26,980 nucleotides of DNA from Oculatellaceae cyanobacterium bins.114 (GCA_033764315.1 JANRJA010000008.1:1-26980); one strand, 5' to 3'. Shown: positions 1,922 to 21,045, numbered from the stretch's first letter. The notes: generated from the sequence alone by a model not told the origin. Numbers and translations: made by a program.

Positions 1922-3265
1922 TCAGTTGCCAAAAACTTGTTGAAAATATTTGCGATACAGTAAACACCGAGGTTGGGCAAGGTTCCCTTCTAGTTTGATC
2001 AATCCCATGCTCTGAAGTTTAAATGCCTGTATCGATTTGAGTTCCAGGGCTTGCTCTGTGAGCACAAGTGTTTTGAAGAGTGTCATCATCTCAGGAGATT
2101 GCGCTAAGTCGGTTAAGAGTTGGCGCAGTGAACTGCTATAGATTCCGGCTTCAGTATGAGCCGTTTTCAATAATTCCTCTAATGGCACTTGTTGTCGTTT
2201 GGCGGCATTTATTGCCAACTGAATCAAATGAGGATGCCCTTCTACCCAACTCATCAGGCGATCGACCTCAGTGTGGCTCCAGGTTAAGTCGTATCGCTGT
2301 GCCAGATGCAAGACCTGATCGGCATTGAGGTCGGGTAGCTCAACAATCATTCCCACACCTGCCAAAGGGGATGTGTTGAGTTCAAGTGAGCTGTAAACCT
2401 CGGTGGAATGGGCAATAACCAACCGCAGATTTTGCCAAACTCGGCTGTGGCGTGCCCCTCGCATGGCCTGATCGTGCCAGTTGCGCAGGAGGTTGCAAAA
2501 ATCACTGGCGATTTCAGCATGTTCAAATACCCGATCGGTGTTGTCTAACACCAGCACGAGAGGATGATTGAGGGTTGGCAATAGGTAATTTTGTAGATAA
2601 GCAGTAGTGTTGTAATTGCACGATAAAAGATCTTTCCAAACACTATCAACTTGATTGGACAGTCCCAATTCTTCGCTTAACACAGCACAAAACCATTTGA
2701 GAAATCGATCGAGATCTGCAAAAACGGCGCGATCAGCGAGTTGAAAACTTAAGTGTATGCTGTCGTATTGAAGCTGGGTCGCCTGGTGCAAGATTTTAGC
2801 GATGAGAGAAGTTTTACCCATTTGACGAGGGGCTTTGATGCGAATCAGCATTCCCGGTTGAGCGATCGCCTTATAACAGTCAGCTTCGATGGGAGGGCGA
2901 TCGACATACAACGCTCCTTCTACATCCTTCCATGTCTCTCGTGGTACACGTGACAGCAATGGGGTGTGCAACTGATTCAGAGGTTCTACCAGTCGAGTAG
3001 GTTCTAAAACGGTGATTTCTGAAACTGACCCAGAATGAATGGATGCTTCTAAATCAGCGATTTCTTGCCAATTCAGATGTAATTCTGAGCAAATTTCCTC
3101 AAACACCCAAAAATCCACTGGTTTACCATTCAAAAACTTATCAACCGTTGCTTTGGCGCGTCTTAAGTGGATTGCGAAGGAAGTTTGACTCGGAAAGCCA
3201 TTTCGCTTGACGGCCAACTTCACCTGCTCAATGCATCCATTCCGAATTTTTAATGATCGTGCCAT
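1922..3265 (-). CDS. AAA-like (AAA_35) domain protein with an N-terminal HTH-like domain
   Basis: Motifs YVDRPPIEADCY, Walker A APRQMGKTSL, Walker B-like LVLDNTDRVF, and GHPHLIQLA. The N-terminus MARSLKI...GFPSQ...TVDKFLNGKPVD...FEEIC is a common cyanobacterial XRE-like module. Confidence 0.85.
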   Translation of the reverse strand: MARSLKIRNGCIEQVKLAVKRNGFPSQTSFAIHLRRAKATVDKFLNGKPVDFWVFEEICSELHLNWQEIADLEASIHSGSVSEITVLEPTRLVEPLNQLHTPLLSRVPRETWKDVEGALYVDRPPIEADCYKAIAQPGMLIRIKAPRQMGKTSLIAKILHQATQLQYDSIHLSFQLADRAVFADLDRFLKWFCAVLSEELGLSNQVDSVWKDLLSCNYNTTAYLQNYLLPTLNHPLVLVLDNTDRVFEHAEIASDFCNLLRNWHDQAMRGARHSRVWQNLRLVIAHSTEVYSSLELNTSPLAGVGMIVELPDLNADQVLHLAQRYDLTWSHTEVDRLMSWVEGHPHLIQLAINAAKRQQVPLEELLKTAHTEAGIYSSSLRQLLTDLAQSPEMMTLFKTLVLTEQALELKSIQAFKLQSMGLIKLEGNLAQPRCLLYRKYFQQVFGN

Positions 3266-4004: not shown

Positions 4005-4580
4005 ATGGCTCAAATTAATCCATTGACCGATCATTCAGACGACAATTACATTCCTCCACTCCACCAGAGTCACGAGTTACAGACTCGACCTCAGGTTACA
4101 GAGTCTGTCAGCCAAGTCACATTGCAAGACTATTTTCGTCAACATCAGCATGAACTCGATCAAGTTGAGTTGTCTTGCATTGCAGTCAGGAATACAACCT
4201 TGGCTCAGCAATTGTATGAGCAGATGCAACAGGGAGCTTCCTTTGATGATCTGGCTCATCTGTATGCTTGTCCTCACTCATGGACTGCTACACAGCTCGA
4301 TGGGCCGCTTGCACAGCACGAAACGCAACGGCTCAATTGGTGGGCATTACGAGATGAATTGAAAGAAGCGATCGCCTCTACGCCACCGGGCACTGTTATG
4401 CAGCCGATCGCGATTAATCAACGCTGGTATTTGATTCGAGTAGAGGCATTTTTACCCGCCATTCTGGAGGGAGAACTAGAACAACAACTGCGACTAGAAC
4501 TGTTTGAACAGTGGCTCGTTGAAACAACTGAAACCCTCCCGGCTCAAGCGACCGACAAAAATTTCACGGCCTGGACGTAA
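4005..4580 (+). CDS. PpiC/parvulin-type peptidyl-prolyl isomerase-like protein
   Basis: LDQVELSCIAV...AQQLYEQMQQGASFDDLAHLY...TPPGTVMQPI...WYLIRVEAFLPAILE...LFEQWL matches the cyanobacterial PpiC rotamase pattern. ATG 4005 follows AAAGGA. The 3891 TTG start is unlikely. Confidence 0.8.
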   Translation: MAQINPLTDHSDDNYIPPLHQSHELQTRPQVTESVSQVTLQDYFRQHQHELDQVELSCIAVRNTTLAQQLYEQMQQGASFDDLAHLYACPHSWTATQLDGPLAQHETQRLNWWALRDELKEAIASTPPGTVMQPIAINQRWYLIRVEAFLPAILEGELEQQLRLELFEQWLVETTETLPAQATDKNFTAWT

Positions 4581-4691
4581 CCTTTAGCAGCGGTTCTCTC
4601 AGCTATAGCAACTGTATGGAACCAAATGTTATTTCCGTACCTCACGCATTAACCCCATTAGACATTTTTTATTCTGGAGGCGATCGCCATC

Positions 4692-5591
4692 ATGACAGAT
4701 TTAGCAACCGTTCAAGAACTGATTGAGCAAAACGAAGCTGCGGCTCAAACCCTGACAGGTGAAGTCGAGCGAGCGATTGAGCACATCGGTCAAATCGAAC
4801 AAGTGACCACTACACTGAATACGACTTTCACAGCCTCGCATCAGGAGTTTCAAACCCAGTTTGAACAATTCAAACATTTTTTAGAAACCCTGGAACAAAG
4901 CCTGACCGAAGAACTAGAACAGTCACAAACGAGTCTCGACCATCTGCAACAACAAGCGAGTGAAATCGAAAGCCAAGTACAAACTCTGGCAGAAGAAATC
5001 ACCAACCAACTGAGTCAGGTGAAAACTCAAGCTGAGGAAACGCTGACTCAGCTCGAAGCCGAAGCCGAATCAATCAAAACAAACCTAAATGAGTTAGCTC
5101 AAACGGCTCAAGAGGGTGAAACCGAGATGGGCGATCGCGGTGAAGAGAGTCAACAAAACCTCGACGATTATCGTCACCAGGTGGAGCAGGCAAAGGCTGA
5201 AATCCAGACCCAAAAGGATTCTCTGCTTGAAGAATTGAACTCTTTAGAGTCATCCATTAAAGCCAAATTACAGGAACTGACAGAGGAGTTTGATGCTTTA
5301 AACGAAGCAGGCACCACCCAACAAACGGAATTAGAAACGGCTGCCGATGATGTGCTAGAGCAAGCTAACGAAGCCCTGGTGGATCGACTGGGAGACTCGT
5401 TTATTGCTGACATGATGCAAACCGTGGATGCGATCAACGATGGCTTATCTGAATTGGGTGATGTTACAGACTCCATTGAGGAACTCATGGAGGGTCCAAT
5501 TGGCGACATTTTGGATACTGCCGGAGATATCACTGAGGCGATCGAACCCATTCTCAATGTCATTGAAATCGCTGAAGATGCACTGACCTGA
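4692..5591 (+). CDS. Acidic alpha-helical/coiled-coil protein 1 (299 aa), function unknown
   Basis: E/Q/T/L-rich with 3-4 hydrophobic spacing. Pro occurs only near the C-terminus. GGAGG RBS upstream. Confidence 0.85.
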   Translation: MTDLATVQELIEQNEAAAQTLTGEVERAIEHIGQIEQVTTTLNTTFTASHQEFQTQFEQFKHFLETLEQSLTEELEQSQTSLDHLQQQASEIESQVQTLAEEITNQLSQVKTQAEETLTQLEAEAESIKTNLNELAQTAQEGETEMGDRGEESQQNLDDYRHQVEQAKAEIQTQKDSLLEELNSLESSIKAKLQELTEEFDALNEAGTTQQTELETAADDVLEQANEALVDRLGDSFIADMMQTVDAINDGLSELGDVTDSIEELMEGPIGDILDTAGDITEAIEPILNVIEIAEDALT

Positions 5592-5600
5592 AAACTATTT

Positions 5601-5643
5601 TGACTCAGAAATCTGTGACTCAAAAATCTGTGACTCAAAAATC
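5601..5643 (+). repeat. Three tandem copies of the 15-mer TGACTCARAAATCTG (last copy partial)
   Basis: tgactcagaaatctg tgactcaaaaatctg tgactcaaaaatc, read directly. Confidence 0.9.
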
Positions 5644-5678
5644 ATTATCGACCGACTTACTTTACAGGAGAGCACATC

Positions 5679-6650
5679 ATGTCTATTGCCCAAGAATTTG
5701 GTCAGTCGCTTCAAGAAGCAGCAGAACACTTGAATCAACTTCTTCAGGTGTTGGAACAAACCCATGAACAGCTAGAAACAACAGATGCAGAGATTGCATC
5801 AAGCAGTGAAGCCTTTCAGCAATCTACAGATGCCCTGGATACAGCACTTCAAGCCCTGGGAGATACCCTGCAATCGAGCGAAGATTCTTTGCAAGGAGGA
5901 GAGGAAATCTCGACTGCCTTGGATCAGTGGCAACAATCTACAGATCAAGCAGGACAACACTTACAGGAGTTAACCCAGTCGATCGACTCGTTGCACCACC
6001 AATTTGAGACGCACCTTGCCGAAAACCTGGCGGAGTTTGAACAACCCCTCACCGAAGTGATTGAGGCTGTGGGAGCGATCGCCGATGAGATTGAGAGTTT
6101 AGAAGCGACGCTGAGCCAAAACCGTGAAGCAACTCAGCAAGAATTTGAAACCTTCTTGCAATCTCTAGGAGAACTGCAACAGCAACTCGAAACCCTGGAA
6201 TCTGAAGTTGGAACTGACCTGAAGGAATTCAACACAGAGTTACGAGAAACAATCACTGAAGTCGAGAGTATGTTTGAGCAGTTCAGCCAGCAATTGAGTC
6301 AACAGCAAAGTGATATGGTTGCTGAATGTGATGATCTCGAAACAGCTTTGAGAGATTTGTACGACCAACTCAAGCAGGAAATCGAAACTGTCGCAGATGA
6401 GTTAGAACACAAGATCTCTGAGATTTCTGAAAAGACAATTCAAGAGCTGTATGAGAAATGTACTGATCCATTGAGAGCCAGAATCCTTGCATTTAGCACT
6501 GAGATTTTGGTGATGGTTGTGGATGAACTGACGGAACGAGGTGTGCGGATTGGCGTTGGTGTAACAGTGACAGGTATTCTCGGTGGTCTTATCCCCTGGT
6601 TAGTCGCTGCCAAATTAACCACATTTGCCCTGGAAAAAATATTTAACTGA
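5679..6650 (+). CDS. Acidic alpha-helical/coiled-coil protein 2 (323 aa) with a C-terminal hydrophobic segment
   Basis: E/Q/L-rich helical body. C-terminus IGVGVTVTGILGGLIPWLVAA. AGGAGAG RBS. Confidence 0.85.
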   Translation: MSIAQEFGQSLQEAAEHLNQLLQVLEQTHEQLETTDAEIASSSEAFQQSTDALDTALQALGDTLQSSEDSLQGGEEISTALDQWQQSTDQAGQHLQELTQSIDSLHHQFETHLAENLAEFEQPLTEVIEAVGAIADEIESLEATLSQNREATQQEFETFLQSLGELQQQLETLESEVGTDLKEFNTELRETITEVESMFEQFSQQLSQQQSDMVAECDDLETALRDLYDQLKQEIETVADELEHKISEISEKTIQELYEKCTDPLRARILAFSTEILVMVVDELTERGVRIGVGVTVTGILGGLIPWLVAAKLTTFALEKIFN

Positions 6651-6759
6651 TGTCAACGTGCACCGTGTTTTACGGATGTGCATCCAGATATTAACTGAGA
6701 TCCAGAAAACTAACCGTTTTCTAAATTGTGCCCATAGACTTACGTAAGGACATTGAGTC

Positions 6760-7677
6760 ATGAATGATGTGTTTAATTCGCTCGCCCAAATCGCAACGAC
6801 AGCCCCTCAACAGTTAGCGGCGATCGCTCAAGAAGTTGTAGCAGTACAGGAAATCGCCACCCAGCTAGAAACCAGTTTGGAGGAAAAACAAACTGAGATT
6901 GAGGCGTTGATTCAACAATTGGAAACCGCGTTTCAAACCTTTCAACAAGAAATCACAGAACAGCAGAGTGAGACGGAAGACCTCGTATCAGAGCTACAAG
7001 CAGGAGTAGAGTCATTAGAGGGCACGATGACTGAGGCTCAAGACCAGTTGAGCCGTGAATTGCAAACCACTCAAGAGGCGATCGCCACTCTTAAAAATCA
7101 GTTAGAAGAACAAAAAACGACGTTGAATACTGCCAGTGAAGAAACAGAAACAGCATTAACTGAGATCCAAGAAACCCTGCAAACCAGCCAGGAGCAACTG
7201 ACAACAGCCCAAGATGCGTTGAGCCAAAGTGCCGATGAACTCCAGGAAAAGATTGCTAATTCCAAAGCAACTGTAAGCGATGGAACTGAGCAACTCAATC
7301 AAGCATTCCAGGATGCAGAGCAAGACTTAACGACCTTAATGGAAGATCTGGCAAATCGCTTTATGGAACTGCAACAAACCGTTGAAATGGATCACAAAGA
7401 GATTAAAGAACTCATGCAAGAGCAGGCACAGGAACTGGAAGAATCAGCGGAGCAGGTGAGCAAAGACATCATAGAAATCGCAGAAGCTGTTGTTCAACTG
7501 CTGATGATGGCACTTGACCACTGGATTGACACATTTTTGGAGAAAAATGATGAATCAAAATCACTCGGTGTAGAAATTACTCCGCTGATTGAAGGGTTGC
7601 AGGAACTGGTCAGAGCACTCCCCGAACAGTTAGAGAAGGTTGAAGAGGTTGCTCAAGAAGTGGGAGTTTTGGCGTAA
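6760..7677 (+). CDS. Acidic alpha-helical/coiled-coil protein 3 (305 aa)
   Basis: E/Q/T/A/L-rich helical body with an amphipathic C-terminus (ITPLIEGLQELVRALPEQL). AAGGA upstream. Confidence 0.85.
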   Translation: MNDVFNSLAQIATTAPQQLAAIAQEVVAVQEIATQLETSLEEKQTEIEALIQQLETAFQTFQQEITEQQSETEDLVSELQAGVESLEGTMTEAQDQLSRELQTTQEAIATLKNQLEEQKTTLNTASEETETALTEIQETLQTSQEQLTTAQDALSQSADELQEKIANSKATVSDGTEQLNQAFQDAEQDLTTLMEDLANRFMELQQTVEMDHKEIKELMQEQAQELEESAEQVSKDIIEIAEAVVQLLMMALDHWIDTFLEKNDESKSLGVEITPLIEGLQELVRALPEQLEKVEEVAQEVGVLA

Positions 7678-7806
7678 GTAAAAGGCTGGAGGATGAGCAA
7701 TGAAGGATTTAGGATTCATGTCACTCTCTAGCCTTCATCCTTGGTTCAATCCCTTCACAAGAGCAATCACCATTCTATTGATTCACCCCCTTACAGGAGA
7801 TTTATC

Positions 7807-8706
7807 ATGGCTGATTTTGTCAACGTTGCCAACGAAACACTAACTCAACTCACCGCATTACTGGAACATGCTGAACATACTCAAACCGCTTTAAGCGAAT
7901 CACACAACCATCTATCTCAGACCACAGACCAAATTGAATCTGACTGGGATTCAGTGACAAGCCATGCACAGAGCCTATTAGACCACATCACCAGTAGCCA
8001 GGAAACCCTTAGCAGTAAGCACCAAACCACCACCGATGTCTTAACGCAACTCAAGAGTCAACTGGAGGAACTGCAAACACAGATCGATCAGGAAGTGGCA
8101 GACACTCAGGCTGCGATCGCCCACCTCAACGAGCGTACCGAAGCCCTCGGCTCTGAATTAGACCAAACGTTTCAAGAGGCAGAAGATGCCTACACTGCAT
8201 TCAAAGACAAAACTGAAGAAACACGCTCAACGCTGGAGGAGAGTGTTTCCCAAACCGAATCAGACATTCAAGATAATGTCATACCTGAGTTGCAATCTTA
8301 TAGTGCTGAGATTGAGCAACACACTGAGCAGGTAGAGAGCACGTTAGAGGAAAGTCGTACTGATATCGCCACTCATGTTCAAGAATCTGAGCAGCACTTT
8401 CAGGAGGTAGAAGAGGCGATCGTCACCAAAGTAACTGAGGTTGGTGAGTTGTTTAAAACGTCTCTAACTGAAGCTCTGGCTGAACTAACTCAGGAGATGA
8501 ACGAAAGCTTTGATATCACTATCAAGAATGTCATGGATATTCATCAAATGTTCGAGAGATATAAGGAAGTGATGGATGAAGGAACACAAAATACGGAGCA
8601 AATCTTTGGTCTAGTCGGCATTGGTGAACGGCGTGCCATCTTTGGACTCACTCTGGTCATTGGCATTATTACCGATGTGCTCAAAATTTTGAGCGGTGAA
8701 GAGTGA
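7807..8706 (+). CDS. Acidic alpha-helical/coiled-coil protein 4 (299 aa) with a C-terminal hydrophobic segment
   Basis: ATG 7807 (MADFVNVA) follows AGGAGA. Helical E/T/Q-rich body. C-terminus AIFGLTLVIGIITDVLKIL. Confidence 0.85.
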   Translation: MADFVNVANETLTQLTALLEHAEHTQTALSESHNHLSQTTDQIESDWDSVTSHAQSLLDHITSSQETLSSKHQTTTDVLTQLKSQLEELQTQIDQEVADTQAAIAHLNERTEALGSELDQTFQEAEDAYTAFKDKTEETRSTLEESVSQTESDIQDNVIPELQSYSAEIEQHTEQVESTLEESRTDIATHVQESEQHFQEVEEAIVTKVTEVGELFKTSLTEALAELTQEMNESFDITIKNVMDIHQMFERYKEVMDEGTQNTEQIFGLVGIGERRAIFGLTLVIGIITDVLKILSGEE

Positions 8707-8736
8707 GGTTAGAGCTTGTGGGTAAATGGTAGCTCA

Positions 8737-8812
8737 TTGTAAAGGTTTGGCAATGACAAACCCCTAACCACAAACGGCTTTACAACTGGGATCTGTTTTG
8801 TTTGCAGATCCC
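8737..8812. repeat. Intergenic stem-loops, including a REP/SDR-like GGTTTGGCAATGACAAACC and a GGGATCTG-N9-CAGATCCC hairpin
   Basis: Inverted repeats ttgtaaag (8737-8744) / ctttacaa (8778-8785) and gggatctg (8788-8795) / cagatccc (8805-8812). Confidence 0.6.
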
Positions 8813-8917
8813 TTACTACCCTTAATCGCCTTTCAAGAGATGAAGCAGAATCTCTCTCATTCAAAGAGATCTTGAGACAAACCTATCCATTCCTTTAATT
8901 GTTCAGGGAATCCCATC

Positions 8918-11116
8918 ATGGTACTTGTACAACCATCCAATCCTGCCACCACAATTTCACCCCAATCGCTATCACCCGATCACCTTTGGCAGGAACGATA
9001 TCAAATCATCAAGCCCTTGGGTCAAGGAGGATTTGGTGCAACTTATCTGGCAATTGATACGCACCATGCCGACCAAGCTCAGTGTGTGATTAAACAGCTC
9101 AAACCCTTCACTGAGAGTGGGTTTAGCAGCGCAGACGAGACTCAACGACGATTTCAGCGGGAAGTGAATGCTCTGAAACAACTTGGACACCACGACCAGA
9201 TTCCGCAATTGCTTGATCATGTGGAAGTCAACGGTGAACTGTATTTGGTGCAGGAGTTTATTGCAGGGCGATCGCTGGAGCAAGAACTGACCTTAAACAC
9301 CGACAACACTGACCCGTCTTGTTGGAGTGAACCGCAGGTCATTCAACTGCTGCAAGACGTGTCGCAGGTCTTGGCATTTGTTCACAGCCAGGGCATGATT
9401 CACCGCGATATCAAGCCCAGCAATTTGATGCGTCGCCAACTCGACCATCGGTTTGTTCTGATTGATTTTGGGGCGATCGCGCCCATTCACCCTAGTGCAG
9501 ATCTGGCACCCGACCAACCCAGTGTGACTCTGGCAATTCACACGGAGGGCTATACCCCCATCGAGCAGTTGCGCGGCAAACCCTGCCCCGCCAGTGACTT
9601 CTACGCGTTGGGAATGGTAGCCATTCAAGCGTTGACCGGGTTGCATCCTAGAGAGTTTGAAGAAACTCTGTCACTCAAAGACATCACCTGGTTTCAAACC
9701 GCACAAGTCAGTGCTGGACTGATTGCCGTTCTGGTGACGATGACTCGCCGCTGTTGGAGCGATCGCTATCAAACAGCTGAAAAGGTTTTGCAAGACCTTC
9801 AGGATTTAGTCGGTTGTTCCCTCGCTGGAGTCCCTGATTCGCTATCTCTGCTAACTCAGCAGGCTACACCGACAACACATGCAGGAGCAGCGATTGAATA
9901 TACCCCCACCCAAGTCACGACTCCTACCCCTGCCGAAACTCCCCCCTCTGCCTCTCCACTGCCCTCTCCGCTGCCCCCCACTGACTTCCATTTGACTGGC
10001 ACTCACAGTCGAAGCCCCGTACCCCCTGCCGACTCCCCTCCTTCCCCACTTCTTCTCGCTAAAAACCGTTGGAAGCGGTTATTTACTCCTCGGCTGTGTT
10101 CTCTGTTAATGGGCGTTGGACTGATCTCAATGGGTGCCTGCATCTTGGTTGGGTTAATTGCAGGATGGCAGGTAGGAGAAGGGCGATCGCCGCAAGAATC
10201 TGTAGAAGCCAGCCCCCTGCCGATCAAGTTTTTACTCACCACCCTGACGGCAAAGGCGGCTGTTCGATCGATCGCTTTTGATGCGGCTGATCAGACACTG
10301 GTAGGTGGATTAGCAGACCATACAACCGTTCGCTGGGACATCGCTCTGGCACAACCGATTCAGACTTTTACCAGTCACTTTAGTCCAGTCACAGTGGTAG
10401 TAGTTAGCCCAGAGGGGCAACTGCTGGCGACGGGAGGTGAAGACACCAACATTACGTTGTGGAATCTTCAGACGGGTGAACTGTTGCACACCTTAAGGGG
10501 ACATTGCTGGTCGATCTTATCTCTGGCCTTGAGTCCGGATGCGCACACGTTAGTCAGCAGTAGCGACGACCATACAGTGCGGTTTTGGGATGTCACGACC
10601 GGAAAGTTACTACACACCCTGACAGACTTTCAGGAACCGTTTCTGTCGATGGATATCAGTCTGGATGGCTCAATGTTGGTGGGAGGTAGTGCCAACAATA
10701 CGATTACGGTTTGGAATGCTCATACCCAAGCGGTATTACGAACGTTGAGAGGGCATTCTGACCAGGTGAACTCGGTTGCCATTAGTGCTAATGGGGCGGT
10801 GTTGGTAAGCGGTAGTGCAGACCATACTGTGAAAGTTTGGAACCTCTACACCGGGGAGATGCTACACAGCCTGACCGGGCATCGCGATACCGTTAACGCG
10901 GTTGCTATTAGCCCGAATGGTCGTTTTTTGGTCAGTGGGAGTGCCGATCAAACGATCAAAATTTGGGATCTCTACAGCGGAGAGTTGATCGACACATTAC
11001 GCGATCGCACCACTGAAATTTCTGCGATCGCCATCAGTCCTGACGGCAAAACGCTGGCCAGCGCAGGGTTAGATGGCACTGTCAAAATTTGGCAAATGCC
11101 CAACTCAGAGGTATAA
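8918..11116 (+). CDS. Hanks-type Ser/Thr protein kinase with a Pro-rich linker, one TM helix and a WD40 beta-propeller
   Basis: Kinase motifs GQGGFG, VIK, HRDIKPSN, DFG, GYTPIEQ and SDFYALG. Pro/Ser/Thr-rich linker. TM segment LLMGVGLISMGACILVGLIAGW. About seven GH...WD/WN repeats. Confidence 0.95.
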   Translation: MVLVQPSNPATTISPQSLSPDHLWQERYQIIKPLGQGGFGATYLAIDTHHADQAQCVIKQLKPFTESGFSSADETQRRFQREVNALKQLGHHDQIPQLLDHVEVNGELYLVQEFIAGRSLEQELTLNTDNTDPSCWSEPQVIQLLQDVSQVLAFVHSQGMIHRDIKPSNLMRRQLDHRFVLIDFGAIAPIHPSADLAPDQPSVTLAIHTEGYTPIEQLRGKPCPASDFYALGMVAIQALTGLHPREFEETLSLKDITWFQTAQVSAGLIAVLVTMTRRCWSDRYQTAEKVLQDLQDLVGCSLAGVPDSLSLLTQQATPTTHAGAAIEYTPTQVTTPTPAETPPSASPLPSPLPPTDFHLTGTHSRSPVPPADSPPSPLLLAKNRWKRLFTPRLCSLLMGVGLISMGACILVGLIAGWQVGEGRSPQESVEASPLPIKFLLTTLTAKAAVRSIAFDAADQTLVGGLADHTTVRWDIALAQPIQTFTSHFSPVTVVVVSPEGQLLATGGEDTNITLWNLQTGELLHTLRGHCWSILSLALSPDAHTLVSSSDDHTVRFWDVTTGKLLHTLTDFQEPFLSMDISLDGSMLVGGSANNTITVWNAHTQAVLRTLRGHSDQVNSVAISANGAVLVSGSADHTVKVWNLYTGEMLHSLTGHRDTVNAVAISPNGRFLVSGSADQTIKIWDLYSGELIDTLRDRTTEISAIAISPDGKTLASAGLDGTVKIWQMPNSEV

Positions 11117-11119
11117 ATC

Positions 11120-13342
11120 ATGGTTGTCAAAGCCGATAAACTAGCACAAACGATCGCTGAACTCCAGTCCACTATTACCGCTCATTCCCAAACTGACGCT
11201 CGATTTCAACCCATTGGGCGATCGCTTGAAACGACTGCAACCATTCTCAAAACAGGAAAGTTATCGCTTCACATCATCAGCCACTATGCTGAGGCCGCCC
11301 AGATCTTGTTGCGGTTTCTGCGAGCGTCTCAAACCCTCACTGAGAAGTACTACATCACGGTGGCAGCAGTTCCCCAGGAATGGTCTGTCCCCGTTGAATC
11401 AGACCTTACTAACATCTTGCTGCTTCCCATCTCAGCCGATCAGCAACATGAGTTTCACCTGACCGCCACTCAGCCTTTGGCGATCGGGCGGCATCCTAAA
11501 TGTCAGGTCTTTATTCCTGACCCCTACCTGCTGGTGTCTGGTCATCATGCCGATCTGCAACCGACCTCTGACGCAGTCACTCCAGGCTGGCAAATCTGCG
11601 ATCGCAGTCGCAATGGCACCTTTGTCAATGGACACCGAATCGAAGATTGGCAGACCTTAGAAGATGGCGATCAGATTACATTGGGGAGTCCGTTTCCGAC
11701 AGAGACATGCCCAACTTTGATCTTTGAATCCCACCGCATGGAAGCAGAATATCCTTCCTCTCATGCAGTGCTGGACTGTGATGTTGTGTGTTTTGTCTTT
11801 GATGCAGAGCGATCGCTTTCCAACGATGAAAAAAACCTCTTAGAACAAGCCAGTCAGGTTCCTCTAATTAAATGGATGGCGATCGCAATGAACGGCGATG
11901 CTCCTATCTCCAATGAAGCGGATTGGGTTATCCCAATCGGTGTCACTGATCTGCGATCGCGCCTGCATCCGTCAACGCACCCCCTCTCGGTAGAGGAATG
12001 GTCGCTGTCTTTACAGACCGATCCAGTGGCGGCACACAGCAAGCCAGACCAAAGTAAATTAGAGGTTGCAAAGCGACATCCAGACAAGCAATTAGAGAAG
12101 TTAATTAAATCACTCGAATCACTTGTCAGACGCAAGCCCGAAGATCTATTAGCCAAACGCTTGGCTCTTCAAGTGGCACACCAGTCAGAGGCGATCGAGG
12201 CTCTCCTCAAGGGTCAGGCAAAACGACTGCACATTGAGCAAACTTGGGATCAATTGAGGCTTAACTCGTCTCACGCCGATGCACCTCAAACTATTCTAGA
12301 GACTCGCTTAAAACCCATTGAGGATGATTTGCTATCGCTCTTTAAACAGATGAGAGAGCGGTTGCCCCAGGCCAAAAGTCGATTGCTCGATGATTATTTA
12401 GAATCCAGCATTCTTAACCGGATTCAACAGTTTGTGCACCGCCTTCAAGCCTGTGTGGTACAGCAGCACGGCAAGAAACTGCTGCAACTCAAACCACCCG
12501 CATCTACAGCAATGTCTGCCATGCCTAAACGAGCCAAAATTAGGCGCAGAAAATCTCGGCTGGTTGTCTTTCAAACTAGGTCTCAAGTTCAAAGAGAGAT
12601 GGCTGCCCCCCCGCCTGACAACGATGCCAATACGGCATTAATCTGCTTTTGTCGGAACGAGTTAACTCAGTGGGCAGATCAGGAGTGGAGAGAGTTTCTG
12701 ATGGGCAATGACATAAAGAACACAAAGGGAGCCGTAGACCTGCTAGAAGATCTCCGAGCCGTCTTAACTTCTCACGGAGAATCTCTGGACGATCTCTCGT
12801 TGCAAATTACCTCACCTGACTACACTCCTGTCTTTGACGAAATATTCACCAAACCACTCGATAGTACGCGCTATCAAGAACCTCATCCATTTTTTCACAT
12901 CCTTAAAAAAGTCAGAAACCAGTGGATGCAATTTCTCTTTATGTTCAGTTTTCTCAGCGTTTTGGGTATTGCAGGACGTAAGCAAATCATGCAACATTTG
13001 ACTGCCCCAATCGCAGTAGCCTTTCATGCTGCTCCCTGGATAGCTAGTGTAGTCACAGGTGGGGTACTGTTGTTTGTGATCAAGCTGTTGATGCAGTGGT
13101 ATCGCGACGATCGCGACACCGAACGTGAGGAGGAAGCGAAAAAGCTACGACAGGGACTAACCACGCATTACCAAGCTTTGGTTAAAAACCGCCTGACAGA
13201 CAAAATTGTTCAGCGGCTGATCGTTGCTTTAGACACCGAAGAACAAAAGCTAAGGGAACTGCTTCAGTCTCTCAAACCCACCCCAAAAGGTTCTGTGGCA
13301 AAAATAGGTCAAGGGCAAGGTGGGAAAATCTTTAACTCTTAG
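11120..13342 (+). CDS. FHA-domain protein with a helical C-terminal region and two hydrophobic segments; possible degenerate dynamin-like fold
   Basis: FHA motifs IGRH, VSGHHA, SRNGTFVNG and LEDGDQITLG are intact. Hydrophobic segments FLFMFSFLSVLGIAG and WIASVVTGGVLLFVIKLLM. Starts 3 nt after the kinase stop. Confidence 0.85.
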   Translation: MVVKADKLAQTIAELQSTITAHSQTDARFQPIGRSLETTATILKTGKLSLHIISHYAEAAQILLRFLRASQTLTEKYYITVAAVPQEWSVPVESDLTNILLLPISADQQHEFHLTATQPLAIGRHPKCQVFIPDPYLLVSGHHADLQPTSDAVTPGWQICDRSRNGTFVNGHRIEDWQTLEDGDQITLGSPFPTETCPTLIFESHRMEAEYPSSHAVLDCDVVCFVFDAERSLSNDEKNLLEQASQVPLIKWMAIAMNGDAPISNEADWVIPIGVTDLRSRLHPSTHPLSVEEWSLSLQTDPVAAHSKPDQSKLEVAKRHPDKQLEKLIKSLESLVRRKPEDLLAKRLALQVAHQSEAIEALLKGQAKRLHIEQTWDQLRLNSSHADAPQTILETRLKPIEDDLLSLFKQMRERLPQAKSRLLDDYLESSILNRIQQFVHRLQACVVQQHGKKLLQLKPPASTAMSAMPKRAKIRRRKSRLVVFQTRSQVQREMAAPPPDNDANTALICFCRNELTQWADQEWREFLMGNDIKNTKGAVDLLEDLRAVLTSHGESLDDLSLQITSPDYTPVFDEIFTKPLDSTRYQEPHPFFHILKKVRNQWMQFLFMFSFLSVLGIAGRKQIMQHLTAPIAVAFHAAPWIASVVTGGVLLFVIKLLMQWYRDDRDTEREEEAKKLRQGLTTHYQALVKNRLTDKIVQRLIVALDTEEQKLRELLQSLKPTPKGSVAKIGQGQGGKIFNS

Positions 13343-17964: not shown

Positions 17965-18927
17965 ATGTTCATTGATCTGCTAGAAAGAAAAAATACAGAC
18001 AGAAAAAATAATCAACTTTTAGAAGCAACTGTCGTTGTCAATAAGCTGAGAAATAGCATTTGGTTTTTTGGGATTCCATCTTGGGTATATGGCATTACTG
18101 ACCGAGGCTTTGCCGCACTCGCCGATGGTTATTTATCCGTGGTTGAGTTAATTCACCTGTTAATAGTCTCCCTCTTCTTCATGGGATGGCTATTGCTAAA
18201 ACCGGACTACGACTCAGAAAACGAACCATTACTACCAACTTATGATCCACAGTCTGTTTCTCATCAAGGCTATTTAGAGGCAACTCGTGCTCGAATTGAC
18301 GAAATGGAGCGACATCATATGATTCGGCAGGAGTACGTTTTGCCATTTCCCTATCTATGTCAGATCTACCATCTCCTGAACCTAAAGCATTTAGAAGAAG
18401 TTCATAGCTTTAGCCTTAACAATCTAAGAATAGTAAAAGTGAGTGAGTTTCAACCTACATCTGTAGGTGGGGTCATAAAATTTCAAACGGTTTTGGACTC
18501 TCCAATCAATGCCTTGAGGATTTGGAGGCAACCCATTGTTGAAGTAGAGTTAATTTTGCATACTCCTTACACCGTAGAGTTGAGCATTCCAGTCTATCAA
18601 AACAGGCGTATTATTGTGCTGTTTAATGCTGTGCCTTTAGACAATACAAATGAACACAAGCTTTTCATTGATATTTACAGTGATTTAGGTTGGTTTAAAC
18701 CCCTTTTGCAAGCTCTATTACACGCTGCTTCTTGTCTCACTCTGTTTGAAGATTTGCCTTACCTGCACACCCTGGCAAACCGAAACGTCCAGCGTTTGGT
18801 TAATTTAGGTCGCGTCTCAAACCACGAGACGATGCAATTGTTTAAGCGATTTGTTGATCTTTACGGTGCAAGCTTAGACGTCTCTAAGCCTACTAACTTA
18901 TTAGCTGAGGCAGGTGCAGAAGCTTAA
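17965..18927 (+). CDS. Hypothetical protein with N-terminal hydrophobic segments
   Basis: Uninterrupted 320-aa ORF with protein-like composition and two N-terminal hydrophobic stretches. No family confidently recognised. Confidence 0.75.
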   Translation: MFIDLLERKNTDRKNNQLLEATVVVNKLRNSIWFFGIPSWVYGITDRGFAALADGYLSVVELIHLLIVSLFFMGWLLLKPDYDSENEPLLPTYDPQSVSHQGYLEATRARIDEMERHHMIRQEYVLPFPYLCQIYHLLNLKHLEEVHSFSLNNLRIVKVSEFQPTSVGGVIKFQTVLDSPINALRIWRQPIVEVELILHTPYTVELSIPVYQNRRIIVLFNAVPLDNTNEHKLFIDIYSDLGWFKPLLQALLHAASCLTLFEDLPYLHTLANRNVQRLVNLGRVSNHETMQLFKRFVDLYGASLDVSKPTNLLAEAGAEA

Positions 18928-19659: not shown

Positions 19660-19995
19660 GTGCCTCGTGAAAATCATCCCGCTCTGGTATCTGACTTGAT
19701 CGAAGAATTTCGGGCATTTGTAGTCGATTCACTGGTACTCTATTTGACAAATTCTGCAATTTTGAATCTAGAGGATTTCACACCACCAGATGAACGGGGA
19801 GGAGTTTATCTGCACCCGGATGCCTTGAAGCGATTTTTAAAGCATTGGGAGGATAAGCTTCAAACTGAGATTGTTCATCCTCACTCAGGGCATAAAGTGA
19901 ACTATCGACGCTGTATGGAGCTACAGGTTTGGGAATATATCGCTTGTTTGATTGGCGATCGCGAGATTTATCGCCCCATGAGATGGGAAATTTAG
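19660..19995 (+). pseudogene. cas1: 3' remnant of a CRISPR-associated endonuclease Cas1 gene
   Basis: HPALVSDLIEEFRAFVVDSLV...EDFTPPDERGGVYL...YRRCMELQV...YRPM is the Cas1 C-terminal region. An in-frame TGA lies a few codons upstream, and the preceding catalytic His motif is missing. Confidence 0.9.
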
Positions 19996-20381: not shown

Positions 20382-20921
20382 GTTCATCAACCCATTACCC
20401 CGCAAGGGAACGGAAACAAGCAGAGCAACAGAGCCTAGACTGGACGCGGCAAAAGTTCATCAATCCATTACCCCGCAAGGGGACGGAAACTCTCTTAGCG
20501 TAGCAAGCCGATCAGGATCATAACCGTTCATCAATCCATTACCCCGCAAGGGGACGGAAACTGAGGTTGGGGTGTTGGCTCTGGTTGCAGGTTATCTGGT
20601 TCATCAATCCATTACCCCGCAAGGGGACGGAAACACCAAATTGAGAAAAAGGGAAAACAGGATAACCACAGACAGTTCATCAATCCATTACCCCGCAAGG
20701 GGACGGAAACCTTCTGTCCAGGCGTATGTCTTCTTGCCTGAACTTTGAGGTTCATCAATCCATTACCCCGCAAGGGGACGGAAACTCTCTTGGCGATCCA
20801 CCGTAAAGGTTTGTGCGCCGTTGAGTTCATCAATCCATTACCCCGCAAGGGGACGGAAACAAAATTCCGTCCCGATGTTGCCCACGCCGAGGTTCATCAA
20901 TCCATTACCCCGCAAGGGAAC
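20382..20921 (+). CRISPR. CRISPR array: 8 repeats (36-nt consensus GTTCATCAATCCATTACCCCGCAAGGGGACGGAAAC) and 7 spacers
   Basis: Repeats start at 20382, 20455, 20526, 20599, 20675, 20750, 20825 and 20892 (last one truncated). Spacers are 37, 35, 37, 40, 39, 39 and 31 nt. The CCCC-GCAA-GGGG hairpin and GAAAC end resemble cyanobacterial type III repeats. Confidence 0.98.
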
Positions 20922-21045
20922 CTACTGTGTACACAGATCTCGGGTTGAGAGTTCAAGACCTGGCTCGATCCCCCTCAATCCCCCTTGAAAAGGACTTTGA
21001 CTTCGATCCCCTCCTTTTTAAGGAGGGTTAGGGAGGATCAAACCC
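20922..21045. repeat. Cyanobacterial small dispersed palindromic repeat / MITE-like element abutting the last CRISPR repeat
   Basis: CTACTGTGTACACAG followed by GATCCCCCTCAATCCCCCTTGAAAAGGACTTTGA...CCCTCCTTTTTAAGGAGGGTTAGGGAGGATC, with nested inverted repeats of a type common in cyanobacteria. Confidence 0.7.

Follow-up and report, generated by a model that had tools for sequence, protein, structure and literature searches.

A conserved six-gene module of coiled-coil proteins, a receptor kinase and an FHA-bearing membrane protein in cyanobacteria, with a possible role in toxin deployment

What does a tight run of genes do in which a PpiC-type rotamase-like gene is followed by four genes for helical proteins, a receptor kinase and a large protein with an FHA domain? 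The question is raised by a stretch of 26,980 nucleotides (nt) from Oculatellaceae cyanobacterium bins.114 (GCA_033764315.1 JANRJA010000008.1:1-26980). This whole stretch is called the window here, and coordinates are in window numbering except where another locus or contig is named. The cluster under study occupies positions 4005-13342. A sequence-only reading had singled it out as a candidate undescribed system, a phosphorylation-controlled machine that acts on membranes, with membrane remodelling or repair, a multi-component pore or anti-phage/conflict activity as possible roles. That observation was confirmed in the present analysis, and its interpretation was partly supported. The four helical proteins are referred to below as h1 to h4, and the FHA-bearing protein as FHA-large.

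The first part of the answer is that six of the seven genes (h1-h4, kinase and FHA-large) very probably form a conserved module that has so far gone unannotated. The six recur together in other genomes, and their clustering is far beyond chance. Among 401 sampled cyanobacterial genomes from across the phylum, a match to the FHA domain is found in 136, but the match extends beyond this domain in only eight (G000, G158, G294, G302, G198, G178, G238 and G296). The h1 profile was searched on a sample of the same size and handle set and finds 14 genomes at E<=1e-5. Eight of these lie at E<1e-30, and they are the same eight that carry full-length FHA-large; the remaining six show partial matches of 1e-6 to 1e-8 in frames of different size. 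The eight module genomes span five families, in which kin are not independent of each other, and the module is missing from the one same-family genome in the sample. The module is thus an accessory set of some filamentous cyanobacteria that is inherited as a unit.

The gene order is conserved as well. Further loci were added from genome contigs (8 confirmed of 112 pattern matches) and metagenome contigs (11 of 309), and a uniform pass with hidden Markov models (HMMs) was made over 24 fetched stretches. At least three h gene types are present in 19 of the 24, in the order h1-h2-h3-h4 without exception. Twelve of these 19 contigs also hold the kinase and FHA-large. In half of the twelve (6/12), all six point the same way, just as they do in the window; in others, the h operon is divergent from the kinase-FHA pair or lies after it. 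The kinase and FHA-large genes themselves abut or overlap in the relatives. The named records of the module come from Leptolyngbyaceae, Elainellaceae and unclassified filamentous cyanobacteria.

A distinct arrangement is found in the four f13 genomes (G296, G198, G178 and G238, loci L067-L070). In them, another h-like set of greater divergence comes after h1-h4 and includes a member of 525-553 amino acids (aa) with an N-terminal transmembrane (TM) segment. The h operon faces a shorter TM kinase, and a gene for a GluR0-like channel (SBP_bac_3 and Lig_chan) lies between the kinase and h1. In G296, the FHA-large gene is found at a distance of 6 kb; in G198, G178 and G238 it lies in another part of the genome. 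A separate FHA-WD40 gene stands by the kinase in two of the f13 genomes. Two types of small membrane protein were also seen near the clusters of relatives, and the window has neither. The first is a 95-98-aa protein with two hydrophobic stretches (judged by eye) that is encoded upstream of h1 (L039 6502-6792, L040 3544-3840 and L041 6454-6741). The second is a 72-86-aa protein with a hydrophobic N-terminal stretch, encoded between h2 and h3 (L092 3670-3930, L093 7079-7297 and L094 6780-7040); at L071 (14636-14896) this type lies directly upstream of h3.

In the window, the open reading frames (ORFs) of all seven genes were confirmed on the plus strand where the sequence-only reading had placed them, with spacers of 111, 87, 109, 129, 211 and 3 nt in gene order. 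The last value separates the kinase stop at 11116 from the FHA-large start at 11120, as had been read. The ribosome-binding sites claimed for the first five genes were also seen. The PpiC-like frame is open from 3891 and has an AAGGAAG motif ahead of its ATG at 4005; the motifs GGAGG, AGGAG and AAGGA precede h1, h2 and h3, respectively, and an AGGAG is found 7 nt upstream of the h4 ATG at 7807. HIP1 sites (GCGATCGC) had been noticed throughout the cluster, and the count bears this out: 45 sites in the window, 18 of them within 4005-13342. By this density of HIP1 the window is cyanobacterial. Scans for promoters and terminators of the window were uninformative (13 promoter-like sites with 11.2 expected, 4 terminator-like sites with 9.9 expected).

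The seventh gene turned out to be an outsider. The PpiC-type rotamase-like gene (4005..4580, +; Pfam Rotamase_2 33.1 bits, cut-off 27) is adjacent and co-directional, but it does not belong to the module. Relatives are found in 154 of the 401 genomes, whether or not the module is there, with six matches in the window's own genome. Of the other 18 contigs that carry three or more h gene types, none has such a gene beside the cluster. Since the family is multi-copy and accompanies no other h cluster, the proposed link to type I secretion falls away. The expectation that the genes would co-occur in other genomes therefore held for h1-h4, the kinase and FHA-large and failed for the PpiC-like gene. 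Two other associations were rejected. A NUDIX gene is not a conserved neighbour, as the window and G158 carry copies that are no orthologues of each other (E 0.007 over 45 aa), and a phage origin was dropped after PHROGs returned only tape-measure coiled-coil matches of 28-34 bits.

It had further been stated that no named system fits this gene set, and this stands for the resources searched. No match to a described system was obtained in Pfam, NCBIfam, PADLOC or PHROGs. The literature searched, with subscription-only papers outside its coverage, describes no system with this gene set, and the set is absent from the passages available of Zhang et al. 2012, Kaur et al. 2020, the lipocone paper and a 2026 ParA preprint.

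The h1-h4 proteins are the most unusual part of the module in their composition. They are encoded at 4692..5591 (h1, 299 aa), 5679..6650 (h2, 323 aa), 6760..7677 (h3, 305 aa) and 7807..8706 (h4, 299 aa), all on the plus strand. Each is an acidic coiled-coil protein of 299-323 aa, with an isoelectric point (pI) of 4.05-4.38 (4.05 in h1, which has no Cys), 20-23% Asp and Glu and only 4-6% Lys and Arg. They are rich in Gln and Thr, nearly free of proline over ~250 residues, and show a hydrophobic periodicity of 3.55-3.6. Searches with phmmer connect them at E values of 1e-7 to 1e-2. In hhalign, h1 pairs with h2 at 95.8%, h2 with h3 at 96.9% (E 1.3e-10) and h4 with h3 at 97.8% (E 1.1e-12), values that may be inflated by coiled-coil composition. 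On these comparisons, the four are read as distant paralogues.

In Pfam, NCBIfam, PADLOC and PHROGs, h1-h4 give only sub-threshold matches of coiled-coil or apolipoprotein type. The PspA/IM30 family is not among the Pfam matches listed for them at E<=0.01 (for h2, the best 25 of 32). An exhaustive search with the h1 profile over 1.84 billion representatives gave 614 proteins at E<=1e-3, of which 106 pass E<=1e-10 and 15 also pass E<=1e-30; most are of 292-300 aa and aligned end to end. A word-index search with h2 found no match at E<=0.001, not even h2 itself. Because the exhaustive search did find 614 proteins, this null is read as composition filtering and not as absence. The feature neighbours of h3 in the Atlas are three cyanobacterial clusters of ~300-aa hypothetical proteins (0.90-0.92).

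The idea of membrane-anchored helical subunits did not survive comparison with relatives. A C-terminal hydrophobic tail is present in h2 (aa 291-309) and in h4. However, the h2 tail passes the hydrophobicity threshold in only two of the seven orthologues tested, and the h4 tail in none of seven, being confined to the window copy. As the tails are not conserved, such anchoring would be specific to the window.

The receptor Ser/Thr kinase (8918..11116, +, 732 aa) combines three parts. Its Hanks kinase domain covers aa 28-293 (nt 8999-9796; Pfam Pkinase 103.7 bits, cut-off 31.7) and has a complete set of catalytic motifs: GQGGFG at 35, VIK at 57, HRD (HRDIKPSN) at 162 and DFG at 183. It is followed by a TM segment (aa 396-414, nt 10103-10159) that is conserved in seven of eight orthologues, and by a WD40 propeller (aa 440-732, nt 10235-11113; Pfam WD40 213 bits). 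The propeller is predicted to be extracytoplasmic because basic residues precede the TM segment. A WD40 part is fused to 14 of the 19 cluster-adjacent kinases. A described counterpart is the anti-phage kinase PD-T4-6 of PADLOC, as the kinase domain reaches 282.8 bits on the model PDLC04045. PD-T4-6 is, however, a one-gene system, whereas the kinase of the window also carries a TM segment and a propeller and belongs with five other genes. Of its 732 aa, only 19-298 are matched, and the same domain also matches more than 20 PADLOC kinase models. With the match confined to the generic kinase domain, the identification as PD-T4-6 was ruled out.

FHA-large (11120..13342, +, 740 aa) would be the partner that reads the marks of this kinase. 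Its N-terminal part consists of a helix and a strand without P-loop. It is followed by the FHA domain (aa 122-189, nt 11483-11686; PF00498 55.7 bits, cut-off 20.7) and, at aa ~196-270 (nt 11705-11929), by what may be left of a G domain of dynamin/mitofusin type, as suggested by weak profile similarity. The protein continues with a long stalk of helices, a membrane hairpin that is recognised by its hydrophobicity (aa ~600-657, nt 12917-13090) and a C-terminal helix. The residues of the phosphothreonine (pThr) pocket (G123, R124, S140, H143 and N170) are invariant across 16 FHA-large sequences. Together with the complete motif set of the kinase, this agrees with the claim that the FHA domain reads pThr. 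The hydrophobic segment of the hairpin region passes the threshold in all six orthologues tested (with two segments in one of them), in line with the proposed membrane-anchored scaffold.

Is FHA-large then a dynamin? The earlier label of a dynamin-like protein has sequence support that is weak and consistent, but the protein cannot act as a GTP-driven dynamin because P-loop, DxxG and NKxD are all missing. For the G1 P-loop, no [AG]xxxxGK[ST] occurs anywhere in the 740 aa, and in 12 aligned orthologues the strand before the expected P-loop runs on into non-conserved polar residues. For G3, hhalign places the DSPG of BDLP (bacterial dynamin-like protein) opposite LIFES in FHA-large. A G4 motif of the NKxD type is not conserved in the 16-sequence alignment, and Pfam Dynamin_N gives no match at E<=0.01.

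The positive evidence comes from profile comparisons. Against the PDB, the 16-sequence profile finds human mitofusin-1 (Mfn1) at E 0.0021, and a profile of aa 196-335 alone finds Mfn1 (0.012-0.041), Mfn2 (0.03), TrmE (0.064) and Fzo1 (0.08-0.13). The conserved strand of DCDV type and the next helix align to Mfn1 203-253. With a more divergent C-terminal profile of FHA-large, the mitofusin matches are lost, and a CdvB/Vps2-like chain matches the C-terminus at E 0.73. The window's genome encodes a canonical tandem BDLP gene pair apart from the module (contig C172 69563-72111; Dynamin_N 118.8 and 83.1 bits), and a BDLP alignment was built from the tandem dynamin-like genes of this genome and two relatives. 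FHA-large matches this alignment locally at 47% (E 1.9e-4) in the same place as the mitofusin match. In the global alignment, the two are collinear and their membrane hairpins coincide, that of the genome's own BDLP lying at 542-580 of 684 aa. Feature neighbours in the Atlas include IniA, dynamin and mitofusin clusters (0.85-0.90), which serve as leads only.

From these comparisons it is probable that FHA-large is a protein of BDLP/mitofusin type whose GTPase is dead and in which the region from switch I to G3 has been replaced by the FHA domain. It would share with BDLP and the mitofusins the collinear series of G-type domain, long helical stalk, membrane hairpin and C-terminal helix, and a weak profile similarity around switch II, the following helix and the G4 strand. 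It differs from them in carrying an FHA domain at the place of switch I to G3 and, besides the lost motifs, in having no tandem dynamin-like partner.

The FHA-large family is rare: a word search over 5.8 billion proteins gave only nine members including the query, all unnamed or "hypothetical", and no copy of the C-terminal part was found in the plasmids of PLSDB. Two further observations concern the C-terminus. At 13220-13342, the FHA-large of the window ends ~40 aa before its closest relative P0002 (65% identical, full-length alignment); it does not have the final C-terminal helix of P0002, and no remnant of this helix is found in other frames downstream. In L031 (380-1159, the same as L044 11285-12064), an ORF of 259 aa directly after FHA-large duplicates only its C-terminal third (hairpin and tail, E 1e-58).

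The clue to a possible function comes from the relatives, which carry extra genes within the h operon, most often at the junction of h2 and h3. Twelve ORFs in nine loci, all inside h clusters, share an N-terminal helix of ~30 aa, called the leader here, and there are two weaker candidates besides. The C-terminal parts behind the leader vary: DUF6973 (Pfam 84.3 and 91.8 bits), Ntox44 (50.2 bits), Peptidase_C39-like (48.7 bits), Ntox5 (25.1 or 25.7 bits depending on the start used, cut-off 25, with a second copy sub-threshold), HNH (19.7 bits, cut-off 21.4), sub-threshold glycine-zipper segments and, in some ORFs, no family at all. A fragment of Ntox44 (35.8 bits) also stands at a contig end after h4 in one relative. 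Directly after one toxin-like gene lies an immunity-type gene of the SUKH/SMI1_KNR4 family (41.1 bits, cut-off 25.4). Small family-less ORFs follow four other leader toxins, one of them with an N-terminal membrane or signal segment; the glycine-zipper genes have no obvious immunity partner. Two loci with h1-h4 88-91% identical hold unrelated genes at the same h2/h3 junction. By sequence, such swapping appears to be the behaviour of polymorphic toxin cassettes, and the conflict role named as one option in the sequence-only reading gains support from these toxin and immunity genes.

The leader also appears to be private to the module. Its profile gives three matches in five module-bearing genomes, all inside h clusters. 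Across the 401 genomes it gives the same three matches, in two genomes, and none in the 393 genomes without a strong h1 match. Three ideas on these cassettes were tried and dropped. A derivation of the leader from the N-termini of the h proteins was ruled out by hhalign probabilities of 1-5%. A PT-TG pre-toxin domain in the Gly/Ala-rich segment of two toxins has no Pfam match even at E<=1. In L042, two unrelated-looking proteins between h1 and h2 (531-1316 and 1343-2170) share the same C-terminal helix of ~18 residues, but its likeness to an inverted leader is by eye only and the leader HMM is negative. For two toxins, a search of solved structures gave nothing below E 0.1, and the literature searched, again with subscription-only papers outside its coverage, gave no paper naming DUF6973.

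How might these parts work together? It is proposed that the module encodes a phosphothreonine-gated, membrane-anchored coiled-coil apparatus that deploys leader-tagged polymorphic toxins, a reading to which a probability of about 45% is given. In this mechanism, a cue from the envelope or a neighbour would be sensed by the extracytoplasmic propeller. The kinase would then phosphorylate threonines of its own, of the Thr-rich h proteins or of both. In the membrane-anchored pseudo-dynamin, the FHA domain would read these pThr marks and nucleate the assembly of the h1-h4 coiled coils at the membrane. Finally, leader-tagged toxins may dock to this assembly, to be released or transferred to competitors. 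The window copy is the core apparatus without a recognisable cargo gene. The patchy distribution of the module (8/401 genomes) is as expected for a conflict system and supports toxin deployment. So do the shared inheritance and conserved order of the core genes, the leader-tagged genes with toxin-type domains, the restriction of the leader to h clusters, the swapping of cassettes and the parallels to T6SS and T7SSb that are set out below.

A bolder version is rather doubtful. It would see here a new protein-delivery system, in which a pThr switch assembles a four-component coiled-coil carrier on a dead dynamin/mitofusin-like scaffold and toxins that bear the ~30-aa helix as a tag dock to this carrier and reach competitors or nearby cells of filamentous cyanobacteria, perhaps via membrane vesicles or contact, without known secretion ATPases.

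Several findings weigh against toxin deployment. The module encodes no ATPase, active GTPase, channel or outer-membrane part. No leader match was found in the window's own genome, which is 90.7% complete, and a leader gene is lacking from 11 of the 19 contigs that carry three or more h gene types, all four of f13 among them. No homology between the leader and h1-h4 is detectable in hhalign (1-5%), and none of ten long matches to the h1 profile is a fusion of an h protein with a toxin. The Ntox5 score hardly exceeds its cut-off, and those for HNH, SLT and glycine zipper fall short of theirs. Moreover, some clusters hold unrelated insertions, namely a PemK toxin-antitoxin (TA) pair, Wza/Wzc-like genes and an IS110 transposase, and the cassettes could therefore be passengers in a permissive spot. 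The TA pair (PemK/MazF) lies between h3 and h4 in L095 (5294-5916). In L038, the Wzc-like (AAA_31) and Wza-like (Poly_export/SLBB) genes lie between the kinase and h4 (7244-10559), and the IS110 transposase adjoins FHA-large (904-1983).

The absence of an export component would suit a role inside the cell, either in defence or in programmed death, and this alternative is unlikely on balance. The kinase would sense infection or envelope damage, FHA-large and the h proteins would serve as the scaffold, and the leader toxins would be suicide effectors held in check by immunity or antitoxin genes. A patchy, accessory distribution fits this explanation too, as does the PemK pair inserted in one cluster, and the dynamin-like DynA acts in phage defence according to passages of PMC12998192. 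The score of 282.8 bits on the PD-T4-6 kinase model also points this way, but it is confined to the generic kinase domain common to more than 20 PADLOC kinase models, and for h1-h4 and FHA-large PADLOC gives nothing but low-scoring matches of coiled-coil type. The combination of SUKH immunity with variable C-terminal toxin domains is, in the parts of PMC3482391 available, a mark of secreted polymorphic toxins. In addition, the membrane or signal segment of one putative immunity protein suggests that its toxin acts outside the cytoplasm.

Equally unlikely is a role in membrane remodelling, repair or the cytoskeleton, in which a phospho-regulated pseudo-dynamin would bring a coat of four coiled-coil subunits to the plasma membrane or that of the thylakoids, with the cassettes as unrelated passengers. 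The BDLP/mitofusin-like architecture of FHA-large is consistent with such a role, and so are the repeated sub-threshold Pfam matches of h1-h4 to apolipoprotein, ApoLp-III and BAR-like families. It would also account for the window and ten other contigs having no leader-bearing gene, and for the unrelated insertions in some clusters. However, passenger cassettes are hard to explain because the leader occurs only inside h clusters. A housekeeping function at the membrane would hardly be limited to 8 of 401 genomes, every GTP-binding motif is missing from FHA-large, and a canonical tandem BDLP pair is already encoded at another place in the genome. The h proteins were also judged to have a net charge (20-23% Asp and Glu against 4-6% Lys and Arg) that is unusual for self-assembling filaments.

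It is more improbable still that the kinase and FHA-large only regulate and that h1-h4 themselves are either an alpha-helical pore-forming toxin of several components or a set of secreted substrates. What speaks for this are four very acidic, all-helical paralogues predicted to be co-expressed, a weak match of h1 to the cytotoxin subunit MakE, and weak WXG100 matches of h2. Yet the score of h1 on the MakE model of the ClyA/Hbl/Mak alpha-pore-forming toxins is 16.3 bits against a cut-off of 360, with no match for h2-h4, and that of h2 on WXG100 (PF06013) is 21.2 bits, below the cut-off of 27.3. No conserved hydrophobic head or tail and no signal peptide is visible in the sequences, and among five module genomes an FtsK/EssC-type ATPase is above cut-off in one and WXG100 in none. 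That the genes are chance neighbours or a mis-called cluster is effectively refuted by co-inheritance and synteny, as h1 and FHA-large have an identical phyletic pattern and the gene order recurs in 19 contigs.

What would deployment of toxins by this module mean? The delivery of toxins between bacteria is poorly mapped in cyanobacteria; in the five module genomes searched, the sheath gene of type VI secretion (T6SS) is found in none, and a type VII secretion (T7SS) ATPase is missing from four. If the proposal is true, a conserved module with a toxin leader to itself would define a new way of trafficking polymorphic toxins. The ~300-aa coiled-coil proteins, a family of ~100 representative clusters, would gain their first function, and a dynamin/mitofusin-type protein would have been reused as a GTP-independent scaffold that reads phosphopeptides. 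Should toxin export prove mistaken, six unannotated genes that are strictly inherited together in distant cyanobacterial families still mark a real machine of the cell that has gone unstudied.

The remainder of the window holds several features apart from the cluster. Two tandem AAA_35 (PF14516) genes (136-1980 and 1922-3265, minus strand; 133 and 412 bits) run divergently from the cluster and have 59 nt in common. They belong to no NCBIfam or PADLOC family and are not beside the other h clusters examined. An ORF of 320 aa at 17965-18927 has no match in Pfam or NCBIfam. At 19660-19995, an ORF of 111 aa corresponds to the C-terminal end of Cas1 only (PF01867 positions 222-282 of 283, 59.8 bits). 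It is followed at 20382-20937 by eight direct repeats with a common core of ~36 nt and a start-to-start distance of 67-76 nt. Apart from this CRISPR remnant, the window showed no intact cas genes. Rfam and tRNA scans of the window returned nothing.

Finally, the module can be compared with known systems for delivering toxins. Secretion components were searched in five module-bearing genomes (G000, G158, G198, G294 and G302). FtsK/SpoIIIE (PF01580) is above cut-off in G198 only, sub-threshold in G000 and G294, and not found in G158 and G302. WXG100 is above cut-off in none of the five, the sheath protein TssC/VipB (PF05943) was found in none, and the FHA model of TagH type gives 39.1 bits against a cut-off of 120.25. 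The module was thus ruled out as a T7SS, with an EssC/EccC-type ATPase in one of five genomes and WXG100 in none, and as an accessory pathway of a T6SS, with TssC in none of five.

Both systems share features with the module. In T7SSb, the membrane components include the (pseudo)kinase-TM protein EssB and the FHA-bearing TM protein EssC. Its LXG toxins need helical targeting partners (Lap), as described in passages of PMC9600955 and PMC10801868. As far as these passages go, the module resembles T7SSb in its small all-helical proteins co-encoded with polymorphic toxins, in the constant N-terminal helical part that would serve in targeting and in the adjacent immunity genes. It differs in that its leader is ~30 aa and not an LXG domain, that the h proteins are ~300 aa, that its kinase is catalytically intact by motifs and carries a WD40 propeller, and that its host is a diderm cyanobacterium.

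In the T6SS, firing is positively regulated by a threonine phosphorylation pathway via an Fha protein (passages of PMC5995506), which in one case responds to membrane damage (parts of PMC5995506 and PMC13713981). On this partial account, the PpkA/Fha1 pair would resemble the proposed switch, with a membrane Hanks kinase that has an extracytoplasmic sensor and an FHA scaffold that switches on toxin delivery. FHA-large differs in being itself a 740-aa membrane protein.

Among the dynamin-like proteins, LeoA enhances toxin release, possibly via vesicles (passages on BDLP, LeoABC and DynA in PMC4159319, PMC6162298 and PMC12998192). The cassettes of the relatives, in turn, resemble polymorphic toxins as portrayed in parts of PMC3482391: a constant N-terminal tag precedes variable domains (Ntox5, Ntox44, peptidase, glycine zipper), with SUKH and with swapped cassettes. 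This constant tag with variable toxin domains is found in relatives only and is absent from the window and its genome. The leader is not among the trafficking domains tabulated in the available part of that paper (signal peptide, TPSASD, PAAR/VgrG, WXG/LXG, MuF, PVC), and the toxins of the module are short, stand-alone and embedded in an operon of coiled-coil genes. Taken as an analogy, the module would thus share its logic with the threonine phosphorylation switch of the T6SS, with the LXG toxins and helical partners of T7SSb, and with the dynamin-like proteins that have a part in toxin release or in phage defence.

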